Notes under the pieces: model-generated
The model's input: only the letters and a program-made list of their open reading frames with translations
The model's database searches: none
What the model was told of the DNA's origin: nothing
Source of the DNA: Candidatus Rokuibacteriota bacterium
Lineage (GTDB): Bacteria > Methylomirabilota > Methylomirabilia > Rokubacteriales > CSP1-6
DNA length: 64,000 nt
Reading direction: 5' to 3'
NCBI GenBank assembly: GCA_016209635.1
Contig: JACQWC010000013.1
Location: forward strand, 12,680-76,679
Program-made: the position numbers and the translations under genes
Shown: positions 38,997 to 63,472 of the stretch, piece by piece
Layout of the letters: the number at the start of each line of letters is the position of its first letter
Numbering within the stretch: position 1 is the first letter of the stretch

Positions 38997-39836
38997 TCAG
39001 CGCTGCCGTGCCAGCACGTAGAGCCCATCCGCCATCCCGGCCAGGCCGGCCAGGCGCATGGCCGCGATCAGGGGCGCGCGCTTCCACCAGAATGCCTTCG
39101 ACCACCAGCGGGGCTCAGGCCAGCCCCGATGCACTCTCTGCCGGATCGTGACCGGCACGAAGCCGGTGCGGGAGAGAAGGCGCTGGATGGTGTGGCGAGA
39201 ATAGATCCACTCGTGCTCCCCAGGATCCCATCCGTTCCAGCGGGTGCCGTACCACCAGCCGGGCAGGGACCGGTACGTGGGCGTCACGAGCGCGAGATAA
39301 CCCTGCGGGCTGAGCCGAGGGCGGGCCGCGTCGAGAAACAGCACAGGGTCGAGCAGGTGCTCGAACACATGGCTCAGGAGAACGACATCGAACTGTTCGT
39401 CCAATGATTCCAGGGTGCCGCAGGTGAGATGACGCCCGAGGCTTCGTCCGTATTCCACCGCCCGTCGATCGCGGTCAACGCCCCGGGCCGTCCACCCACG
39501 TTCTGCGAAGTACCCGACCGTGGCACCAGTCGAGCAGCCGACATCCAGGAAGGACCGGGGCGCCTCGCCGACGCAGGCGACGAGAAAGCGGTAGGTATCC
39601 TCGGCAAACCATCGCCACCGCGCTTCTTCGACCATACGCCAGCGGTAGGCCTCCGTGGAATCGTCCTGCCGATGCGCCGGCGGCCACAGGCGCTCAACGC
39701 CACAACCACCGCAGCGCAGAACCACGTGGGACTCGGAGAGGCGAAGCAGCTGCTGGAACGTCCGCTCGTTCGCGCAGATACAGCACCGAATGGTGACTTC
39801 AAGTCTGGCTGGCCCCCGCGTCTGGACTCTCGTCAC
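38997..39836 (-). CDS. Class I SAM-dependent methyltransferase with N-terminal Cys4 zinc-ribbon
   Basis: Start taken at GTG 39836 (GTGA overlap); the ORF track extends to 40472. CCICANE...LRCGGCG zinc ribbon, then motif I FLDVGCSTGATVGYF and FDVVLLSHVFEHL. Confidence 0.8.
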   Translation of the reverse strand: MTRVQTRGPARLEVTIRCCICANERTFQQLLRLSESHVVLRCGGCGVERLWPPAHRQDDSTEAYRWRMVEEARWRWFAEDTYRFLVACVGEAPRSFLDVGCSTGATVGYFAERGWTARGVDRDRRAVEYGRSLGRHLTCGTLESLDEQFDVVLLSHVFEHLLDPVLFLDAARPRLSPQGYLALVTPTYRSLPGWWYGTRWNGWDPGEHEWIYSRHTIQRLLSRTGFVPVTIRQRVHRGWPEPRWWSKAFWWKRAPLIAAMRLAGLAGMADGLYVLARQR

Positions 39837-47288: not shown

Positions 47289-47930
47289 TCACCGCGAGCC
47301 GCAACGGACGCACAGGAGCAACAGGAGGTCCTCGGGCGCCGGGATAACGCCATGGGGCTCTTCCCGGACGAAGCTACGGAGCCCCGGCTTGCAGGATGCC
47401 CGCACGTCGCGCAGCGCGGCCTCGGCGGCTCCGACGGCGCGGCGGGCATCCTCCGCGGTGGTCTCCCCGTGCGGCAGGAGGCCTTCCTCGGTGGGGTAGC
47501 GACCGCGGTACAGCTCCACGACATCGTGACTGCGCGGCGGGCCCTGTCCCCTCCCCAGTAGCAGGGCCTTCAGGGCGCGCTCGACGCACTGCTGGCCGTG
47601 CAGGCACGCCGCGCGGTGCTTCTCGCGCTCGAGCAGAATCGCGGCACTCTCCAGCTCCTCCTCCGCCTCGCGGAGCCAGGCTTCGGTCGCCCTTCGCATG
47701 TAGAGGACCCTCCCGTGCTCGACGACCTCCTCGATGAAGGGGCTCCCCAGGGCGTAGAGGTCGCGCATCTCGCGCCGCGTGTAGACGAGGACATCGAGCG
47801 GGACCGCGCGGTCGGCAAGGAGCCGCTCGACCTCGGCCCCGCCGGTCGCGTGCGAGCCGAACAGGATGATCCGGTCGGGGTCGTAGTGGCTCACCAGGCG
47901 CTCGACGACAGCGGTCAGGGTCGTCAGCAT
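47289..47930 (-). CDS. Fused minimal nucleotidyltransferase (MNT-like) + HEPN domain protein
   Basis: 213 aa. N-part IILFGSHATGG...PLDVLVYTRREM...HGRVLY (pol-beta NTase fold). C-part WLREAEEELESAAILL...CLHGQQCVERALKALLL...RSHDVVEL...GRYP (HEPN). The usual Asp-x-Asp segment after the GS motif seems absent. Confidence 0.6.
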   Translation of the reverse strand: MLTTLTAVVERLVSHYDPDRIILFGSHATGGAEVERLLADRAVPLDVLVYTRREMRDLYALGSPFIEEVVEHGRVLYMRRATEAWLREAEEELESAAILLEREKHRAACLHGQQCVERALKALLLGRGQGPPRSHDVVELYRGRYPTEEGLLPHGETTAEDARRAVGAAEAALRDVRASCKPGLRSFVREEPHGVIPAPEDLLLLLCVRCGSR

Positions 47931-50605: not shown

Positions 50606-51052
50606 ATGAAAATCATCTGCTCCCCCTGCCGCGCGGGCGGACACCGCGCCATCGTCCGCGAGGAAGAACCGATGACTGACGAACACGAAACGGTTGGCCT
50701 GTGCCTCGAACACAGCATCGCCGTCCTCGGGCAGATTCGTTCCCAGCTGGGCGGGTCGCTGGGGCGACAGCACGCGAGCCCCCGTGGGCACCCGAGTGAA
50801 CGCCGACGCTCTCCACGCACCCAGGTGTCGTGGCCCGTGCGCCTCTGGGTCGGCCACGAAGCACTGAGCGGGCAGGTCGTGGACGCGAGTGCAAGCGGCA
50901 TCGCCCTGGCCACGGCTCCGACGGCCGCAGTGAAGCTCGGCAAGGCCTACCGGGTCGAAGTCCTCGGTGGAAGTCACGGTGCCTCGGCGTTCATCGCTGA
51001 GGTCCGCAATGTCGGCGGCGGCAGGGTCGGCATGGAGATCAGGAACGTGTGA
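50606..51052 (+). CDS. PilZ domain protein with N-terminal Cys/His cluster
   Basis: ATG preceded by GGAGGA. Canonical c-di-GMP motifs RRSPR (RxxxR) and DASASG (DxSxxG). The N-terminus CSPC...CLEH resembles a small zinc-binding module. Confidence 0.75.
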   Translation: MKIICSPCRAGGHRAIVREEEPMTDEHETVGLCLEHSIAVLGQIRSQLGGSLGRQHASPRGHPSERRRSPRTQVSWPVRLWVGHEALSGQVVDASASGIALATAPTAAVKLGKAYRVEVLGGSHGASAFIAEVRNVGGGRVGMEIRNV

Positions 51053-53655: not shown

Positions 53656-54051
53656 ATGGTTGAGCCGGGCCGCGAGGACGTCACGCTGAACACCCTGCAC
53701 GAGGATTTGACCGCGGGCTTCCGGGAGACGCGGGTGGAAATGCGCGCGGGTTTCGCCGACCTCAAGGCGACGCTGGTCGCGGGCTTCCGGGGCCTGCCGA
53801 GTCGCGAGTCGAGCGAGGAGATGGTGCGCCTGCTCCGCGAGGGAAACCGGCTGCAGGAGGCGCGGTTCGCGCAGCTCGACCTCCGCATCCGCGAGCAGCA
53901 CCTGGAAACCCAGCAGATCCTCCACGCCGTGGCCGAGGGCCAGCGCGCCCTGGTCAGCGAGGTCAGGACCCTCTCCGCGGACATCAAGGCCCTGATCGCC
54001 CGCCTCGACGCAATGATCAAGGGGCGGGGCGACGGGAGCCCTGCCCCGTAG
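53656..54051 (+). CDS. Coiled-coil repeat protein of unknown function (paralogue 2)
   Basis: ATG 53656 preceded by GAGGAGGA. 131 aa, collinear with 48070-48549 except for two 14-codon indels. Confidence 0.6.
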   Translation: MVEPGREDVTLNTLHEDLTAGFRETRVEMRAGFADLKATLVAGFRGLPSRESSEEMVRLLREGNRLQEARFAQLDLRIREQHLETQQILHAVAEGQRALVSEVRTLSADIKALIARLDAMIKGRGDGSPAP

Positions 54052-54226
54052 GCTTCAAGCCTGCGCCCGCCTGGCCCGGCTCCCCTGAGGGGACCCGGAC
54101 CGCGAGGCGCGCTTCCGTGTGGGCGACCTTGGCCTCTTTGAATCGACCGCTTTCCTGCGATAGAGTTCCCGCGGCGGTCCTCAACCCGAGCGCCGGGGAT
54201 CGCATCGGAGCGTCCGGAGGGGACAT

Positions 54227-54880
54227 GTGAGCTTTGTCAATGAAGGTCGATCGCCGGTCCGGCCGGGCGAGCCCGCGCCGGACTTCACCCTGGCCGCCGC
54301 GCACGCGACCGGCACGGTCTCGCTCGCGGACTACCGCGGCCAGCGTCCGGTCCTGCTCGTGCTCCTCCGGGGGCTCTACTGACCCTTCTGCCGGCGACAC
54401 GTCGTGTCGCTCGGGGTCACGGCGGAGAAGCTCCAGCGGGTGGGCGTCGCGACGCTCGCGGTCGTCGCGACCGCTGCGGACCGGGCGCGCCTCTTCTTCC
54501 GGTTCCGCCCGCCGCGGGTCCCGGTTGGCGCCGACCCCGATCTCACGACCCATCGGGCCTATGGACTGCCGAACATGGAGCCGAGCCAGGAGCTTTGGGC
54601 CGCGATCCAGAACGTCGCGTCGACTCTCTCCCGCGAGCTGAACCTGGGCGTCCCGCCGGACGAGGCGTATGCGGCCATCGACCGGCTCGACGGCTACAAG
54701 AAGGACCAGAGCGACACCGCGGATCTCGAGCGGCATCGCGCGCAGGGCACCGGCCAGTTCCTCGTGGATGCGAGCGGGACAGTCCGCTGGGCGAACATCG
54801 AGTGCGCGCGCGAGGGGCTGGCGGGCGTCGACAAGTTCCCTGCGGACGAGGAGCTGCTGGCGGCGGCCCGCGCGCTCTGA
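54227..54880 (+). CDS. Peroxiredoxin-like (AhpC/TSA-redoxin, thioredoxin fold) protein with in-frame TGA at the CxxC position: candidate selenoprotein (U-P-F-C)
   Basis: GTG 54227 after GGAGGGG. The frame reads ...PAPDFTL...VSLADYRGQRPVLLVLLRGLY-TGA(54380)-PFCRRHVVSL... and continues in the same frame as ORF 54404-54880. The paralogue at 58622-59266 has the same TGA. Confidence 0.65.
54393..54411 (+). promoter_or_regulatory. SECIS-like hairpin 10 nt downstream of the in-frame TGA
   Basis: GGCGACAC-GUC-GUGUCGCU: 7 Watson-Crick pairs plus a G-U, with a G-first apical loop 19 nt after UGA. The 23 nt around it are identical in the paralogue, while flanking synonymous sites differ. Confidence 0.5.
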
Positions 54881-54932
54881 GGGTGCGGCCCGCGCGGCCG
54901 CGCTAGTGACGGCCAGGAGAGATGCTTATGGG

Positions 54933-55109
54933 GAGAGGAACGGTATACCCGTGGCCCGCATCGTTCCGATCCTGACCGACCGGCTGCCGTCGCTCAACGA
55001 AGCGCTGGCCGCGTGGCGCGCGGCGGGAGAACCCGACGCGGCATTCGCCGACGATCTCGAGCGGATCGGTGCCGCCGACCGGCCGCCGGCCAATCCGTGG
55101 GCGTCGTAA
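54933..55109 (+). pseudogene. 5'-truncated antitoxin gene (homologous to the 3' part of 48860-49116)
   Basis: ERNGIPVARIVPILTDRLPSLNEALAAWRAAGEPDAAFADDLERIGAADRPPANPWAS-stop parallels [53 protein letters not shown]. The N-terminal half is absent. Confidence 0.5.
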
Positions 55110-55264
55110 TCGACACGAGCGCACTCGTCGCCGCCGAGCGCGTCGGCGCCGTCTGGGATGACTCCCTCGCAGCAACCGGCGGCGAGAGTGTCGTGAGGGG
55201 CCCGCGCGATGAGGCGCATTTCCGACAGGTGCCTGACCTCAGGGTCGAGACCTTGCGGGCATAA
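55097..55264 (+). pseudogene. VapC (PIN-domain) remnant with internal deletion
   Basis: VGVVIDTSALVAAER... is followed directly by ...DEAHFRQVPDLRVETLRA-stop. At 55 codons it is too short for a PIN domain. It is the counterpart of 49113-49297. Confidence 0.5.
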
Positions 55265-55273
55265 GTAGATGCA

Positions 55274-58200
55274 CTAGCCGAGGAACGGCAGCACGACCAG
55301 CGAATCGGGCTCGAGCCCCGCGCGCTCGCAGACCTCCTGCGCCTTGAGCATGTAGGCCTCCGCCCGCGCCTCGTCGCCCAGATCGAGGTGGAGCGTCGCG
55401 AGCCCGTCGTAGCAGGGGAACAGGAGCTGAGGCTCGCCCATCCGCTCGGCCAGGGCCAGGGCCTCACCGTAGTAGCCGAGCGCCCGCTCCGTCTCGCCCT
55501 CGCACTGATAGATCTGGCCGAGGACGATCAGCGGCACCGCGAGGTGGTCGAGCTGACCGAGCTGCCGATCCAGGTCGATGGCCTGGAGCGCCGCCTGGAT
55601 GCCCTCCTCCTCGCACCGGTCGGTGAGCGCACAGTAGGCGACGGCCAGGTTCGCGTAGAGCCATGACTGGAACCCGAGGTCCCCAATCTTCCGGGCGGTC
55701 TCGAGGCCGGTGAGGCAGGTGTCGATCCCCTTCCGCGGATCGACCTGGCTGTGGAGGACGCCGAGGTTCGTGTAGGCCCGGCAGGCGACGCGGAGGAGGT
55801 CGTGCGCGCGGGCGACCTCGACGCTGCGCTCGATCTCGCTGATGGCCCGCTCGCGCTCGCCGAGGCGCGCCCAGGCGACGCCGAGGGTGTTGCGCGACTG
55901 GGCGATGACGGCCGCGGCCTCGGCACCGACCGCCTCCGGGCCCTCCCCTCCCGCCCTGTCGAGGGCGTGCTGCGCCAGCGTGAGGGCCTGCTCCGCCCAC
56001 TCGATGGCCCGGGGGTTGTCGCCGCTGCGAAACGCGAGCCGTCCCATCTCCTGGAACAGGTGGGCGCGCTCGATGTCGTGAGTGCCGGGGGCCAGGACCT
56101 CGAGCCCGCGCTGGAAGGCCTCGAGCGCCCGCTGCCGCTCGCTCGCGTCCCAGAGGAGGCCCCCGACCTTCCGGTGCATCCGCCCCTGGATCTCCGCGTC
56201 GCCCAGCTCCTCGGCGCGCGCCAGCACCGCCTCGTAGTGCTCGAGCGCCGCGCCGCGCTGCCCGGTCAGCGCGAGCAGGTCGCCGAGGCGCTCCCTGACC
56301 TCGAGCTCTTCACGCTCGTACCCGGCGCACCCGGCGATCGTCTGGAAGGCGAGCGCATAGTGCCGGAGGGCGTCGTCGTTGGCGTAGACCACCCGGGCCC
56401 GGTCGCCGGCCAGGAGGAGGTAGCGGACGCCGCGCGGGCGATCACCGCTCAGGCTGAAGTGGTGCGCGAGCGCCTCGATCTCCTCCAGCCGGTGAGGGCG
56501 CCCGCCACAGAGCACCTCGAGCCCCTCGCCGGCCCGGCGGTGGAGCTCCGCGCGCCGGCTGAGGAGCACGTTCCCGTAGACGACCTCCTGGATCAGCGAG
56601 TGAACGAAGCGATACCTCGGCTCGCCGCTCTCGGCGCGCGCCCGAGGGACCTCCTCGACCAGCTCGACCTCCTGCAGCAGGTCGAGCGCCGAGTCGAGGG
56701 CGTCACCGATATCGGAGACGATCCGCAAGAGCGCGAGGTCGAAGGTGTCGCCGAGGACCGCGGCGTCCTGGAGCACGCGCCGGGCGGGCCGCGGGACGCG
56801 GTCGATGCGTGAGAGGAGGAGCGCCTCGATGGTTCGCGGCACGTCGACGACCGCGTCGCCCTGGGCGCACGCCCAGCCCTCGCCCTCGCGCCGGAGCACG
56901 CCGCCGGCGATCAGCTCGCGGACGATCTCCTCCAGGTAGAGCGGGTTCCCGCCGGCGCGCTCGACGACGAGGTCCCGCAGCCGGTCCGGGATCCGCGGCA
57001 ACGAAGCGTGGAAGAACGCCCCGAGGATCCGCGCGGCCTCCGACCGGCCGAGGGGCGCGAGCCGGATGATCGTGCTCGTCACGCGGGCCGTGACGAGCCC
57101 CTGCGCCTCGAAGCCCGGCCGGTGCGTGACGAGCACCATGAGCGGCCGGGCGGCGAGCCGGTCGGCGGCGAACCGGAGCAGCTCGACCGAGGCCGCGTCG
57201 GCCCAGTGGAGATCCTCCACCAGGAGCAAGAGCGGCCCCTGCTCGAGCCGCCGCTCGAGGAGCCGCCGCGCCGCGAGGAAGATCTGGCGCTTGAGCTGCT
57301 CAGGCTCGACGTGGCGCACGGCCTCCTCGGAGGCGAACCCCTGGACCCAGGCCAGGATCGGGGTGATCGCGGAAGCCTCGGCCTCGCCGATCCCGATCTC
57401 GCGGACGCCGGCGACGACCCGGTCGGCCGCCGCCGCCGGCGTGTCCTCCCCCGTGATGCCGAAGGCCTGCCGGAGGAACGCGGCGAAGACGCCGTAGGTC
57501 TGCTCGCCGAGCGCGCTGCACACGGCGCGCCGTACGGTGACGTCCCGCAGCCGGCCCTCCGCCTCGAGGCCGCCGAGGAACTCGGCCAGGAGGCGGGACT
57601 TGCCGACGCCGGCCTCGCCAACCAGGCTGACGACCTGGGCCGAGCCGGCGAGCATCCGCTCGAAAGCGGCGTGCAGCTGGCCGAGCTCCTCGTCGCGCCC
57701 GACCAGCGGCGCCACGAGCCCATGCGCCTCGAGGCCGCGGAGCGGCTGGGGCGCTTCCAGCGCGGACAGCAAGCGGTAGGTCGGCACCGGCTCGCGCTTG
57801 CCCTTGACCGTGAGGGCCTCGGCGGGGTCGAAGCCGAAGGCATGCTCGGTCAACCGGTGCGTGCTCGCGGCCACCAGCGTCTCGCCTGCCGCCGCCGCGG
57901 AGAGGAGCCGGGCGGCGGTGTTGACGGTGTCGCCCGTCACCGCATACGCCGCGCTTGCCGCCGCCCCCAGGGTGCCGGCGACGACCGGCCCGGTGTTGAC
58001 GCCGACGTGCAGCGCCACCGGCGACCCGAAGCAGGGCTCCCACCGCGCGGCGAGCGGCCGCATCTGCGCGTGCATCGCGAGCGCGGCATGGAGCGCGCGC
58101 TCCGGGTCGTCCTCATGCGCGCTCGGCGCGCCGAACACGGCCATGACCGCGTCGCCGACGAACTTCTCGACGAACCCCTCGTACCGCTCGACGACGCCCG

Positions 58201-58543
58201 CCAGAGTCGCGAAGAGGTCGCTCTGGAATGCGCGGACGTCCTCCGGATCGAGCCGCTCGCTCAGCGCGGTGAATCCGGAGAGATCGGCGAAGAGCACGGT
58301 GACAGCGCGGCGGTCGGTGTCCGGACGGGCCTCGCCGCGCGGGGCGGCCGCCGCCGGCGGCGGGGCCGTCGGCGCAGGGTCCGGCGACGGGCCCGCCAGT
58401 CTGGCGCCGCACTTCGGGCAGAACGCGAAGTCCGGAGCGCAGGCGGCTCCGCACCCGGGGCACAGGACGGGAAGCCGCGCGCCACACTTCGGACAGAAGG
58501 CGAAGTCCGGCGAGGCCTCGAAGCCGCAGCCCGTGCAGGTCAC
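55274..58543 (-). CDS. Multidomain signalling protein: double zinc ribbon + class III adenylate/guanylate cyclase + AAA/STAND-type ATPase + TPR repeats
   Basis: 1089 aa. CTGCG...CPKCG...CPGCG...CPKCG; cyclase block RRAVTVLFADLSGFTALSERLDPEDV...GDAVMAVFG; P-loop LVGEAGVGKSRLL; the C-terminal ~450 aa are TPR-like. GTG start. Confidence 0.9.
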   Translation of the reverse strand: MTCTGCGFEASPDFAFCPKCGARLPVLCPGCGAACAPDFAFCPKCGARLAGPSPDPAPTAPPPAAAAPRGEARPDTDRRAVTVLFADLSGFTALSERLDPEDVRAFQSDLFATLAGVVERYEGFVEKFVGDAVMAVFGAPSAHEDDPERALHAALAMHAQMRPLAARWEPCFGSPVALHVGVNTGPVVAGTLGAAASAAYAVTGDTVNTAARLLSAAAAGETLVAASTHRLTEHAFGFDPAEALTVKGKREPVPTYRLLSALEAPQPLRGLEAHGLVAPLVGRDEELGQLHAAFERMLAGSAQVVSLVGEAGVGKSRLLAEFLGGLEAEGRLRDVTVRRAVCSALGEQTYGVFAAFLRQAFGITGEDTPAAAADRVVAGVREIGIGEAEASAITPILAWVQGFASEEAVRHVEPEQLKRQIFLAARRLLERRLEQGPLLLLVEDLHWADAASVELLRFAADRLAARPLMVLVTHRPGFEAQGLVTARVTSTIIRLAPLGRSEAARILGAFFHASLPRIPDRLRDLVVERAGGNPLYLEEIVRELIAGGVLRREGEGWACAQGDAVVDVPRTIEALLLSRIDRVPRPARRVLQDAAVLGDTFDLALLRIVSDIGDALDSALDLLQEVELVEEVPRARAESGEPRYRFVHSLIQEVVYGNVLLSRRAELHRRAGEGLEVLCGGRPHRLEEIEALAHHFSLSGDRPRGVRYLLLAGDRARVVYANDDALRHYALAFQTIAGCAGYEREELEVRERLGDLLALTGQRGAALEHYEAVLARAEELGDAEIQGRMHRKVGGLLWDASERQRALEAFQRGLEVLAPGTHDIERAHLFQEMGRLAFRSGDNPRAIEWAEQALTLAQHALDRAGGEGPEAVGAEAAAVIAQSRNTLGVAWARLGERERAISEIERSVEVARAHDLLRVACRAYTNLGVLHSQVDPRKGIDTCLTGLETARKIGDLGFQSWLYANLAVAYCALTDRCEEEGIQAALQAIDLDRQLGQLDHLAVPLIVLGQIYQCEGETERALGYYGEALALAERMGEPQLLFPCYDGLATLHLDLGDEARAEAYMLKAQEVCERAGLEPDSLVVLPFLG

Positions 58544-58621
58544 GTGAGTACTTTACGCCATCTCTGCGGTATGATCCCAGCGTCGCCCGGTGAGTGCGGT
58601 GGCGAAAGGAGGACCATCCAC

Positions 58622-59266
58622 GTGACTTCCCCCGACGGACGCCAGTCGCCCGTTCAGCCAGGAGAGCCGGCGCCGGACTTCGTCCTGCCGGCCGCGCACG
58701 CCGAGGGCACGGTTTCGCTGTCCGGGTACCGAGGGCGCCGCCCGGTCCTCGTGGCCCTCTTCCGCGGCCTCTACTGACCGTTCTGTCGGCGACACGTCGT
58801 GTCGCTCGGCAGCACGGCGGACAAGCTCCAGCGCGAGGGCGTGGAGACCCTGGCGGTCGTGGCGACGGCGCCCAGCCGCGCACGCCTCTACTTCCGCTTC
58901 CGCCCCTCGAGGATCCCGGTCGGCGCCGATCCCGAACTGGTCACCCACCGCGCCTACGGCCTGTCGAGCGGTCCCCTGACGCCCGAGGTGAGGGAAGCCA
59001 TCGAGGCCGCCGCGCAGCGGCTGGCCGGCGAGCTGAAGTTGCAGATACGCCCCGACGGAGCCCTCCAGGCGATCGCAGGGCTGGACGGCTGGCAGGTCGA
59101 TGCCAGTGACGGGGACGCGAGCCACGCCCAGCTGATCGGACAATTCCTGGTGGACGGAGACGGCATCGTCCGCTGGGCCAACGTCGAGTGCGCGCGGGAC
59201 GGGCTCGCCGGCATCGCCGGCTTCCCGACCGACGAGGACCTCCTGGCCGCGGCGCGATCGCTCTGA
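58622..59266 (+). CDS. Peroxiredoxin-like protein with in-frame TGA at the CxxC position: candidate selenoprotein (paralogue 2)
   Basis: GTG 58622, 8 nt after AAGGAGGA. The frame reads ...PAPDFVL...VSLSGYRGRRPVLVALFRGLY-TGA(58775)-PFCRRHVVSL... and continues in frame with ORF 58799-59266. Confidence 0.65.
58788..58806 (+). promoter_or_regulatory. SECIS-like hairpin downstream of the in-frame TGA (paralogue 2)
   Basis: Same GGCGACAC-GUC-GUGUCGCU hairpin at the same offset from the TGA as at 54393-54411. Confidence 0.5.
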
Positions 59267-59600
59267 GACACCCGCACCGGCGCCCTTCCTCGAGCGCCCG
59301 CCGACGAGCACCGTTCTGTTACAACGAACACATGGGCACGACGGTCCGGAACCTGGACGAGACATGCTCGCGTCGCCCTCCGGCGCCGTCTGGCCGGCCG
59401 ACTGTGAACGAGCAGTTTGAAACCGCCTGGCGCCTGCACCTCTTCCTGACCGCGCGGCCTCACGGAGCCCGGGACATGCCTACGGCCCGAATCTCGCCCC
59501 CGCGGGAAATCCATGGCTTTCGGAAGCGCTTCCCGGCAAGCTCAGCCGAGGGCACCGGCGCTGTGAGGCGTGGATCCTGCGTCGTCACGCCTGTCAGCGG

Positions 59601-60023
59601 TCAAGCGGGCAGGAGCGCGAACCCCTCGCGGCTAGCGGCATCCCGGAGGCGTTCGTCCACGCACACGAACGTCTCGCCCACGGGCGTATCCTCGCACCAC
59701 ACGAGGGCGGCCGCGAGCTGGAGAGCGTCCCCGGCGCGGAGCGGATGGGCGGCGAGCAAGCGCCCGGCGCGCTCGCGGAGCCGAAGGGTGGGCGCGACGA
59801 CGTCCGCGTCCTCGACGAGGCCGGCGAGGCGGTGCAGAGCCTGCTCGAGCGACCGCGCCGGCAGCCGCACTTCACGGTGCCGGCGGTACAGTGCCGACTG
59901 GCATTCCAGCGGGCTTCCCCACCAGAGCGCCCGAGTCGCATCGGCGCGGAGCGCGGTAACCAGGATGTCGGACTGAGGGGCGGACAAAAGGGTCGGGACG
60001 AGCGCGGAACTGTCCCAGAACAT
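59601..60023 (-). CDS. vapC: PIN-domain toxin (VapC family)
   Basis: 140 aa. MFWDSSALV N-terminus with the first acidic residue, PIN-sized. ATG overlaps the antitoxin stop by 1 nt. Confidence 0.8.
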   Translation of the reverse strand: MFWDSSALVPTLLSAPQSDILVTALRADATRALWWGSPLECQSALYRRHREVRLPARSLEQALHRLAGLVEDADVVAPTLRLRERAGRLLAAHPLRAGDALQLAAALVWCEDTPVGETFVCVDERLRDAASREGFALLPA

Positions 60024-60313
60024 CAGCGCCCTTCCGCACGCTCCTCCAGCAGGGCGCGCAGGACGCCAGAGCCCACCGCCGGCCCCCGGGGCGGTCGGCG
60101 CAGGAACGGCCGGAGTCGTCCGGTGCCCAGAGCGAGCAGCCCAGCGCGAGCCAGGCGCTCACGGCGCGAGGCGACCCCCTCCGCGCCGCGCAGCCCCACG
60201 AGCTTGGCGACCGGCCGCCCGCGGTCGGTGATGAGAACGTCTTGACCGTGCCGGGCGGCCGCCAGATAGCGGCTGAGCTGTGCCTTGAGCCGGGCGACGC
60301 CCACCTGGGTCAT
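60023..60313 (-). CDS. Phd/YefM-type antitoxin
   Basis: Start at ATG 60313 (MTQVGVARLKAQLSRYLAAARHGQDVLITDRGRPVAKLV), the typical Phd/YefM N-domain. Confidence 0.8.
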   Translation of the reverse strand: MTQVGVARLKAQLSRYLAAARHGQDVLITDRGRPVAKLVGLRGAEGVASRRERLARAGLLALGTGRLRPFLRRPPRGPAVGSGVLRALLEERAEGR

Positions 60314-60944
60314 GTGACCATCATGGTCACTTCGCCGCCTGGTGTCAACGACTCCAGTTGGATACAGCATCACGCCGGGACGTAGGACCTCGGGACGGCG
60401 TCAGGTCACTTGAGGACGGACGAACTCCACGATCGCACGGCAGGTGGAGGGCCTCGCGGTCGTACCTGCCTGAGAATGGAACCGCAGATGTCGTTCCGAA
60501 CATCAGAGAGTAAGAAACTCAATGAGTTACAAACGTGATCTTGAGACGAGCGTCCAAGCTTTGGTGTGGGCACGGGTGCTGGCGGCGCAGCAGGGAACCT
60601 CCGTGAGCCGTCTTCATCGGGAGCGAGGATTTCATCTGGGGGAAAGATCCACGGCAGCCGGGAAGAGTGGCGAAACCCCGCTCGTGCGAGATCCTCGCCT
60701 GACAAGTCCAGATACGCGAGACCTCTTCGGCGTGTTCTCCGCTGGACTCACCCGCCAGCGCTGAGGAGAGGCCGACGTCCGACCCGGCGGCGCGTCACGG
60801 GTGAATCACCCCATCTCCCCCCTTGGGAAGCCTGTCGCCGCCGGGTCCGGCGGGCGGGATCGGGTAGAGGGGGCGAGTCGATGCTTGACCGGGATCTCAC
60901 CTGCGATGTATGTTGCGATGTATACGGAGGCCGTCCTGGCGAAG

Positions 60945-62699: not shown

Positions 62700-62911
62700 A
62701 TCACGCTCCGCCCTTGGCCATCGCTCGATCTCCTCCCGCCCCCAAGAGGACCGCACCAGGGTCAGTTCCTCAACCAGAAAATGGTCTGGCGTTCCGGGCG
62801 CAGGCTCCTGGGATGCCCGCGGGAGCGACGGCGTTCGGCCCCACTGTCCACGACTCCCGACACTTGTGCGACGGTGAGGCGGCCGGTAGAGTCGACGCGT
62901 GGGAGGGATCC

Positions 62912-63472
62912 GTGGCTGAACCCCTGATGACGCGGCGCTTCACCGTCGACGAGTACTACCGCATGGCCCAAGCGGGGGTGCTCACCGAGGACGATCGCGT
63001 CGAGCTGATCGAGGGGCAGATCGTCCTGAGGGAGCCGATCGGCCCGTACCACGCGGGCACCGTGAGGCGGCTCAACCGTCTCTGGACGACTCGACTTGGC
63101 GCACGGGCGGTCGTGGACGTCCAGAACCCCGTCCGGCTCGGCGCGCACTCCGAGCCCCAGCCGGATCTGGTCTTGCTTCGCCCTCGCCACGATTTCTACG
63201 CCGACACGCATCCGGAACCCGCGGACGTGCTCCTCGCCATCGAGGTGGGGGGGACGAGCGCCGAGGGCGACCGGACGGTGAAGATGCCGCTCTACGCCAG
63301 GGCGGGCATCCGCGAGGCCTGGCTGGTCGACCTCGCGGCGGATCGCGTCGAGGTGTACCGGCGGCCCAGCGACGAGGGCTACCGGGATGTCCGGAGGCTC
63401 GGCCGCGATCAGACGCTGAGCGCCGAGGCGTTCCCGGACGTCACCCTGACCGTCGGCGACCTCCTCGGATAG
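62912..63472 (+). CDS. Uma2 family (DUF820) endonuclease
   Basis: FTVDEYYRMAQAGVL...RVELIEGQIV...PDLVLL...LAIEV...D...K...YARAGIREAWLVD is the restriction-endonuclease-like Uma2 pattern. Start at GTG 62912 after GGGAGGGA (ATG 62927 is an alternative). Confidence 0.8.
   Translation: MAEPLMTRRFTVDEYYRMAQAGVLTEDDRVELIEGQIVLREPIGPYHAGTVRRLNRLWTTRLGARAVVDVQNPVRLGAHSEPQPDLVLLRPRHDFYADTHPEPADVLLAIEVGGTSAEGDRTVKMPLYARAGIREAWLVDLAADRVEVYRRPSDEGYRDVRRLGRDQTLSAEAFPDVTLTVGDLLG

Follow-up and report, generated by a model that had tools for sequence, protein, structure and literature searches.

The Prx-like thiol:disulfide oxidoreductases are a known family of predicted selenoproteins with U-x-x-C or U-x-x-U redox motifs (U, selenocysteine, Sec; Kryukov & Gladyshev 2004, as listed in PMC9312934, PMC13188914, PMC1088965 and PMC2398784, 'Prx-like 1'). 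Here, we describe a redoxin gene of this kind, with an in-frame TGA, from a 64,000-nt stretch (hereafter the window) of contig JACQWC010000013.1 of a Candidatus Rokuibacteriota bacterium (assembly GCA_016209635.1). This gene (copy 2, positions 58622-59266) has a paralogue (copy 1, 54227-54880), and a large cyclase gene lies between the two. With a probability that we put at close to nine in ten, it is an intact gene for a thiol (selenol):disulfide oxidoreductase of the thioredoxin/peroxiredoxin fold, in which UGA codon 52 specifies Sec and whose gene is tied in genomic position to that of the neighbouring cyclase protein. Both the predicted selenoprotein family and the selenoprotein richness of the phylum were already known, a 2026 review citing a Methylomirabilota metagenome-assembled genome (MAG) in which 63 selenoprotein genes are predicted, the highest number yet for a bacterium (PMC13188914). 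The selenoprotein find is thus sound and not surprising; what it adds is the scale of the family (>150 unannotated TGA forms), its several hairpin solutions and its tight pairing with a STAND-type adenylate cyclase.

Judged on its sequence, copy 2 belongs to the Prx-like family (PF00578, UxxC). As in that family, an AhpC-TSA domain carries U-x-x-C where true Sec-peroxiredoxins have T-x-x-U, many cysteine (Cys) homologues exist, the UGA is followed by a hairpin whose small loop contains G, and the function is predicted. By comparison with the published description of the family, whose reference sequence is WP_010940744.1, the subfamily found here is longer (~217 aa), with a three-helix insertion of ~50 residues, and is concentrated in Methylomirabilota/Rokubacteria, where two to five paralogues often mix Sec and Cys forms, and it is linked to a cyclase-STAND gene. 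The best NCBIfam match, the SelL-related redox protein model NF040769, scored only 51.1 (copy 2) and 59.3 bits (copy 1), far short of its 120-bit cut-off, and was confined to the N-terminal half of the protein; the likeness to this model and to eukaryotic SelL (a UxxU Prx-like protein) lies in the Prx-like fold and a selenium-containing, dithiol-type motif.

Two other groups of thioredoxin-like proteins resemble the predicted product. TlpA/ResA/DsbE-type oxidoreductases (PDB 3hdc, 3gl3, 3c71) gave the best profile-to-PDB sequence matches, have a thioredoxin fold with the same N-terminal beta-hairpin, and place the W-C-x-x-C of DsbE/ResA-type proteins (3gl3, 3hdc) on Y-U-P-F-C. These proteins are however exported or membrane-anchored and act in cytochrome maturation, whereas the window protein has a helical insertion, a predicted Sec and no hydrophobic N-terminus. 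Peroxiredoxins (AhpE, BCP/PrxQ, typical 2-Cys Prx) are the closest solved folds. The AlphaFold2 model of P0002, a 61%-identical Cys homologue used as proxy for the window protein, has a mean predicted local distance difference test score (pLDDT) of 93.4 and combines a thioredoxin/peroxiredoxin core with three extra helices (residues ~120-169), which is also the part in which copies 1 and 2 differ most. All of its top Foldseek matches in the PDB are peroxiredoxins (target-normalised TM-scores 0.63-0.84), so that, on this proxy, the window protein is modelled with the same fold. When aligned on the peroxiredoxin F-(S/T)-x-x-C motif (BCP 2cx3, AhpE 1xvw), U falls on Thr/Ser and C55 on the peroxidatic Cys. 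The PxxxTxxC signature is not kept (FFPlaFTgiC in AhpE against lfRGlyCpfC), Pro being replaced by an invariant Arg and Thr by Sec/Cys, and the catalytic Arg of the AhpE nRGTFVVD segment lines up with a position that is not conserved, copy 2 having Ile there and copy 1 Thr. As both features of the peroxidase active site are missing, the motifs mark copy 2 as something other than a peroxiredoxin sensu stricto. The label "Prx-like" given by the initial annotation is thus right for domain and fold, and does not extend to a peroxiredoxin in the strict sense.

The redoxin gene, its in-frame UGA and the hairpin

The elements of the two redoxin genes are as follows (SECIS, selenocysteine insertion sequence; dN/dS, ratio of nonsynonymous to synonymous divergence; dS, synonymous divergence).

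58605-58613, plus strand: AAAGGAGGA, Shine-Dalgarno-like sequence 8-9 nt 5' of the GTG start (direct reading)
58622-59266, plus strand: copy 2, Prx-like (thioredoxin-fold) redoxin gene, 214 codons with an in-frame TGA (translation, Pfam, homologues)
58775-58777, plus strand: UGA codon predicted to specify selenocysteine, residue 52 and first of the redox motif U-P-F-C (Cys alignment, TGA homologues, dN/dS)
58778-58817, plus strand: extended stem predicted for copy 2, with lower helices flanking the apical hairpin (minimum free energy -28.9 to -30.3 kcal/mol, z = -2.1 to -3.5)
58788-58806, plus strand: apical stem-loop of the presumed bacterial SECIS (folding, pair counts, covariation)
54227-54880, plus strand: copy 1, paralogous predicted selenoprotein gene, whose 3' end faces that of the cyclase gene (tblastn, sequence, Pfam)

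A GGAGG (58608-58612, inside AAAGGAGGA) precedes GTG 58622 by nine bases, and the N-terminus set by this start agrees, in the alignment, with those of full-length homologues. From there, the frame is open to 59264-59266 save for codon 52, a TGA in the context ...RPVLVALFRGLY-TGA-PFCRRHVVSLG... (VALFRGLY-TGA); the true stop is also TGA. The N-terminal sequence VTSPDGRQSPVQPGEPAPDF is hydrophilic, with no hydrophobic segment (by direct reading rather than with a dedicated signal-peptide predictor), so the product is probably cytoplasmic. Copy 1, whose protein is 64% identical (tblastn), has its TGA at 54380-54382 and its hairpin at 54393-54411, in the same layout and at the same offset. Within the window (67.5% G+C), only these two copies match the DNA pattern YRG-x9-RG[LVI][YWF]-TGA-x[FY]CRR, for which no match is expected in shuffled sequences.

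Several lines of evidence make the TGA a sense codon of an intact gene. In both copies, a single domain reaches across the TGA: Pfam AhpC-TSA and Redoxin match residues 13-118 (7e-14 and 2e-11 in copy 2), the AhpC-TSA profile PF00578 scoring 52.3 bits on copy 2 and 55.6 on copy 1, above a 26-bit cut-off. A protein search returned 2845 homologues at E<=1e-5. In all 119 full-length homologues among the matches listed (~217 aa, 52-63% identical; those named being Rokubacteria, NC10 or Methylomirabilis), the TGA column holds Cys within the motif G[LVI][YWF]-C-x-[FY]-C-R. Cys52 and Cys55 are both invariant in an alignment of 47 sequences, and 23 Cys forms also occur within the fetched loci. A scan of one genome per GTDB species and of JGI metagenomes with a motif pattern that required the TGA yielded 28 GTDB loci and 110 metagenome stretches, together 151 sites with 109 distinct sequences, from Methylomirabilota/Rokubacteria, Chloroflexota and other MAGs. 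At every one of them, coding sequence is conserved to either side of the TGA, and the N-terminal coding region (..PVQPGEPAPDFTLPA..GTVSLADYRG..) stands in frame 5' of the TGA, the motif PxQPGEPAPDF...YRG...RG being kept. Between copies 1 and 2, dN/dS is 0.23 upstream of the TGA (50 codons, dS 1.03) and 0.34 downstream; purifying selection therefore acts on both sides.

The initial annotation had given the GTG start, the TGA within FRGLY-U-PFCRRH and the hairpin at 58788-58806, and had attributed the same architecture and hairpin offset to copy 1; on reading both sequences, every one of these coordinates proved exact. It had also judged by eye that similarity between the copies peaks near the motif and towards the C-terminus and is lowest in the middle, which the downstream dN/dS by thirds bears out (0.18, 0.61 and 0.20). 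Its argument that the retained TGA speaks against recent inactivation gains from the 151 sites found elsewhere, and the comparison of selection upstream and downstream that it had proposed gave no sign of neutral evolution upstream. Its inference that the copies are old holds in terms of divergence (dS ~0.8-1.0, 64% protein identity) and needs one addition, that the duplication appears lineage-specific. Indeed, the window copies are sisters in a neighbour-joining tree of 124 long-form (~217 aa) proteins, which is rough and indicative only, and as nearest relatives they point to a duplication specific to their lineage and, given their divergence, not a recent one.

The second body of evidence concerns the RNA. 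The hairpin of copy 2, GCGACAC-GUC-GUGUCGC, consists of seven Watson-Crick pairs and a closing G58788-U58806 pair (8 bp); it begins 13 nt past the U of the UGA, its 3-nt loop, which opens with G, lies 18 nt past the UGA, and copy 1 has the identical sequence. The 60 nt around the TGA of copy 2 fold at -30.3 kcal/mol (z = -3.5, 0/200 shuffles as good). Pairs were counted on 91 distinct long-form TGA sequences in a gap-free alignment, for a structure of two helices, one apical (columns 27-33 with 37-43) and one lower (columns 19-26 with 53-60). In this structure 83.7% of cells were paired, and sliding the 3' partners by one to three columns lowered the share to 31-61%; the lower helix, family-wide, was 84% paired. 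Its covariation score was 0.134, compared with 0.094 +/- 0.004 for shuffled alignments (0/500) and at most 0.093 for the slid controls. Compensatory changes are well illustrated by pair 30-40 (G-C 65, C-G 10, G-U 6, A-U 6), where the A-U of the window combines a synonymous change (CGG>CGA) in one arm with a Leu>Ser change (CUG>UCG) in the other, and where G-U intermediates are present in other loci. In Cys-form genes of the same loci (n=16), only 52% of cells were paired in the TGA-form register. The hairpin is thus conserved with compensatory changes and specific to TGA forms. Other clades use other stems at a near-equal distance, such as CCAGCUC-GUC-GAGCUGG (one codon shifted), CGCCC-AGUU-GGGCG and, in a short form of the family, GGCGC-AGUU-GCGCC; all have a small loop with G among its first two bases. 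Published descriptions make such a loop the feature that bacterial SECIS elements have in common (PMC1088965), and we presume the hairpin to be one, with a predicted affinity for SelB.

Under this reading, codon 52 would be decoded as Sec: the hairpin 13 nt downstream would act as SECIS and bring SelB, loaded with Sec-tRNA(Sec), to a ribosome that has the UGA in its A site, and the same UGA codon 162 codons on, without the hairpin signal, would terminate translation. Sec52 and Cys55 would form a U-x-x-C redox pair with Sec as the attacking nucleophile, located where the first long helix starts, like the C-x-x-C of TlpA/ResA/DsbE-type proteins. Such a decoding must be site-specific, because TGA is the true stop of 35 of the 51 predicted window genes, both redoxin genes included, and the commonest one; UGA is not globally reassigned in the window.

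Several observations weigh against the selenocysteine reading. No selA, selB, selD or tRNA-Sec gene was detected in the 64-kb window or in ~150 fetched loci: ARAGORN predicted no tRNA of any kind in the window and no tRNA-Sec in the fetched loci, Pfam found no SelA, SelB or SelD among ~50 predicted window proteins, and tblastn with the E. coli SelA/B/D queries had no match in the window or any fetched locus. Rfam gave no match across the whole window at gathering thresholds and, at E<=10 on 58740-58880, no SECIS family and chance matches only (e.g. a CRISPR repeat model, E = 0.02). The local fold of copy 1 is not clearly better than shuffles (z = -1.1 to -1.3), and folding energy is equal in TGA and Cys forms (-14.4 vs -14.4 kcal/mol, p = 0.46), a comparison that is uninformative at 67% GC. 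A G-A mismatch occurs at stem pair 29-41 in about one third of the long-form sequences. Synonymous entropy at the SECIS codons is lower (0.97 vs 1.10-1.25 bits) without being significant (p = 0.15). Finally, the subfamily as a whole is known only as sequence. With these points counted, the selenoprotein reading is well supported, and Sec is very probably inserted at codon 52.

Pairing with a STAND-type adenylate cyclase

The partner gene and the spacer that separates it from copy 2 are located as follows.

55274-58543, minus strand: partner gene, 1089 aa, double zinc ribbon, class III (adenylate) cyclase, AAA_16 STAND ATPase and TPR (Pfam, PDB match)
58544-58621, no strand: divergent intergenic region of 78 nt between copy 2 and the cyclase gene (gene coordinates)

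Class III cyclases rely on two metal-binding Asp, an adenine-specifying Lys, and transition-state Asn and Arg residues. The cyclase domain of the partner matches P. aeruginosa CyaB (PDB 3r5g, 4e-29), and the alignment of FADLSGFT, EKFVGD, GVNTG and VNTAARL with CyaB places the full set of catalytic residues. Zinc-ribbon cysteines are kept in 16-19 of 19 cyclase orthologues. A look-up of the exact partner protein returned no record. Its architecture resembles that of the Rv0386-type cyclase-STAND-TPR proteins of M. tuberculosis. Like cyclase-STAND-TPR adenylate cyclases in general, the partner has a class III cyclase, an AAA_16 ATPase, TPR and the catalytic residues; unlike them, it has an N-terminal double zinc ribbon and a redoxin partner gene, and no helix-turn-helix or kinase domain. 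Its nearest NCBIfam model is the TOMM kinase/cyclase fusion TIGR03903, with 261 bits against a 706-bit cut-off, hence below it.

For synteny, loci were fetched by the redoxin TGA motif alone. A cyclase orthologue, full-length or truncated (55-66% identity), adjoins the redoxin gene(s) in 60 of the 68 informative long-form loci; it is absent from the other eight, whose redoxin arrays have flanks of 1 kb or more to either side, and from all seven short-form loci. The association also holds from independent starting points: each of three Cys-form redoxins picked out of the protein search follows immediately 3' of a cyclase of this type, and all four cyclase homologues from a separate search have a redoxin gene alongside (two Cys, two TGA forms), so that the pairing is reciprocal in 7/7 independent checks, in both directions. 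Most often the cyclase comes first and is followed on the same strand by redoxin(Sec), with or without a redoxin(Cys) in between, the gaps being 20-100 nt. Upstream and divergent arrangements are also seen, and in the window, copy 2 is divergent and copy 1 convergent. When 18 flanking window open reading frames (ORFs) were compared with all loci by tblastn, no neighbour other than the cyclase was conserved. The redoxin and the cyclase thus form a conserved two-gene module, and the closest relatives of both genes are all from Methylomirabilota/Rokubacteria, at only 56-66% identity. A similar cyclase and TGA-redoxin pair, at 58-59% identity and like that of the Rokubacteria loci, was found in a MAG labelled Phycisphaerae (JBHHZX010000247.1), which may reflect horizontal transfer or a mis-binned contig.

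The initial annotation had noted the 78-nt divergent spacer, which the minus-strand start at 58543 confirms, and had hinted at co-regulation of the redox enzyme with the signalling protein. This hint now finds backing in the conserved reciprocal synteny, the function of the module being a prediction. A promoter and terminator scan of 54000-59700 found nothing, and no sigma-70-like promoter appeared in the 78-nt spacer with this simple scan. We found no relevant description of a redoxin-cyclase link, or of selenocysteine in Rokubacteria, in the searchable literature.

The redoxin most likely works with or on the zinc-ribbon/cyclase/STAND/TPR protein and would thereby be linked to cyclic adenosine monophosphate (cAMP) signalling, and we favour a redox relay or a redox-dependent activation of the cyclase as the function of the module. 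More specifically, and tentatively, the redoxin (Sec or Cys) and the cyclase protein may constitute a dedicated two-gene redox-sensing module that switches cAMP synthesis, with Sec tuning reactivity and the three-helix insertion serving for docking. On a peroxide or disulfide signal, the U/CxxC protein would become oxidised and would then pass its state to, or bind as a "ligand", the STAND-TPR sensor or the Cys-rich zinc ribbon. Such a module would resemble the eukaryotic Orp1-Yap1 or Prx2-STAT3 relays, but with a second-messenger output.

An equally tentative possibility is that the link is positional only, the two genes forming a small conserved island in which the redoxin would act more broadly, as an antioxidant or a disulfide reductase. 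The link is one of gene order, the orientation varies (same-strand downstream, same-strand upstream, divergent, convergent), and some loci do without the cyclase, namely the eight long-form loci mentioned above and the short forms of Chloroflexota, which never have it. On the other hand, the pair is kept while all other neighbours change, the association is two-way in the independently chosen Cys forms and cyclase homologues, and the short same-strand gaps of the commonest layout are operon-like. The reciprocal pairing provides a testable hypothesis for the activator of one of these large and poorly understood bacterial cyclases.

Other readings of the in-frame UGA

The reading that competes best with Sec at codon 52, improbable as we consider it, is that translation continues past the UGA with cysteine or another standard amino acid inserted there, either by a Cys-charged tRNA-Sec-like tRNA or by hairpin-aided near-cognate suppression. 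It would fit the Cys present at this position in all listed full-length homologues, the repeated interconversion of Sec and Cys forms in the tree, and the Sec machinery missing from the window and fetched loci. It leaves aside, however, a SECIS-like hairpin that has a small G-containing loop, stands at the canonical distance and is specific to TGA forms, while TGC or TGT would be a simpler way to encode Cys. A canonical UGSC gene with TGA also exists in the phylum, which PMC13188914 reports as very selenoprotein-rich. The UGSC-family gene belongs to a Rokuibacteriota MAG (GCA_050731515.1; L146:8308-8700, plus strand), in which the gene call stops at an in-frame TGA. There, the sequence ...AVGC-TGA-GSC-TPAVV... 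is followed by a hairpin CGCCCGC-CGUGGU-GCGGGCG starting 11 nt past the UGA; this canonical C-U-G-S-C gene, located 3.4 kb from a Cys-form redoxin module, is by its sequence a second predicted selenoprotein family cut short by annotation in the same phylum.

We give still less credit to the TGA as a true stop, which would leave either a pseudogene or a 51-residue peptide and a separate 155-residue protein from GTG 58799. TGA is the usual stop codon here, and the sole database entry for the window gene is indeed the 155-aa post-TGA ORF (P0001), as annotated by gene callers. This product has no domain match and would contain neither of the two redox residues nor the initial beta-strands of the fold. 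The upstream dN/dS of 0.23, the upstream frame and sequence kept at 151 independent TGA sites across phyla, and the TGA retained by both paralogues after a dS of ~0.8-1.0 also contradict a stop, and these comparative data effectively refute it, to the extent that sequences can. The TGA is one base away from a Cys codon, yet the view that it stands for TGC or TGT through an error of sequencing or assembly deserves next to no weight, as the same TGA is found in both paralogues, in an independent Logan assembly from another sequencing run (L001) and at the 151 other sites. The contig itself is present in runs SRR12113390 and SRR12113401. Pseudogene, split gene and read error are in sum ruled out by the domain span, the Cys column, the 151 sites, the dN/dS values and L001.

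No further in-frame TGA of the window qualified beyond those of the two redoxin genes. The TGA at 38999 (minus strand) splits same-frame stretches of 530 and 396 codons (LYVLARQR-TGA-AGGRLMAH), without Cys or redox context, and seems to separate two ordinary adjacent genes; the one at 56810 (plus strand) is antisense to the cyclase gene.

Gene callers cut at least 150 relatives of copy 2 in the same way as they do copy 2 itself, and the selenoproteome and redox-enzyme inventory of the lineage is therefore undercounted.

Paralogues, relatives and surrounding genes

Most TGA sites belong to the long form (~217 aa) of Methylomirabilota/Rokubacteria. In the neighbour-joining tree, the window copies lie near clades that have the same hairpin variant (L048, L083, L132, L138), and Cys forms are scattered among Sec forms. 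Many relatives carry redoxin arrays of two to five paralogues mixing Cys and TGA forms, with four or five in L007, L056, L067 and L101, and further arrays in L004, L057, L068, L027, L039, L046, L054, L130 and L139. These adjacent Sec and Cys versions, together with several independent hairpin solutions, offer a natural system for studying Sec/Cys exchange and the evolution of SECIS elements within coding sequence. Divergent TGA motifs outside the scan pattern were also recovered by tblastn (GVGG-TGA-PFCRRH, PGMV-TGA-PFCRQH, HGAT-TGA-PFCRRH, GVY-TGA-PLCRVH and GLE-TGA-GFCRRQ). The redoxin gene of L088:834-1442 has an extra CA within the hairpin region (CGGCGGCACACGTCGTGTCGC) together with a disrupted frame, and is probably a decayed copy.

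The short form (~165 aa, RGFF-U-PFCRRH) occurs in Chloroflexota/Anaerolineae and one Desulfobacteraceae MAG (L010-L012, L014-L017, L019, L020, L026, L028, L040, L073, L111, L123, L134). Its hairpin, given above, is highly conserved at ~24 nt past the UGA, and it never has a cyclase neighbour.

Around the module, the window contains genes that are not part of this association. A PIN-domain toxin (59601-60023) and a Phd/YefM antitoxin (60023-60373), both on the minus strand, lie just 3' of copy 2, and the pair is also present on L001. A HEPN-domain protein (47289-47930, minus strand), a PilZ-domain protein of the cyclic-di-GMP receptor type (50606-51052, plus strand) and a Uma2-family endonuclease-like protein (62714-63472, plus strand) are encoded nearby and are not conserved beside the module in other loci. 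At 79-47100 (minus strand) there is a very long same-strand run of polysaccharide-biosynthesis genes, with many GT1/GT2/GT4 glycosyltransferases, a Wzy-like polymerase, carbamoyltransferase, MBOAT and DegT aminotransferase, as well as epimerases/dehydratases, nucleotidyl transferases, methyltransferases, GtrA and a GHMP kinase.

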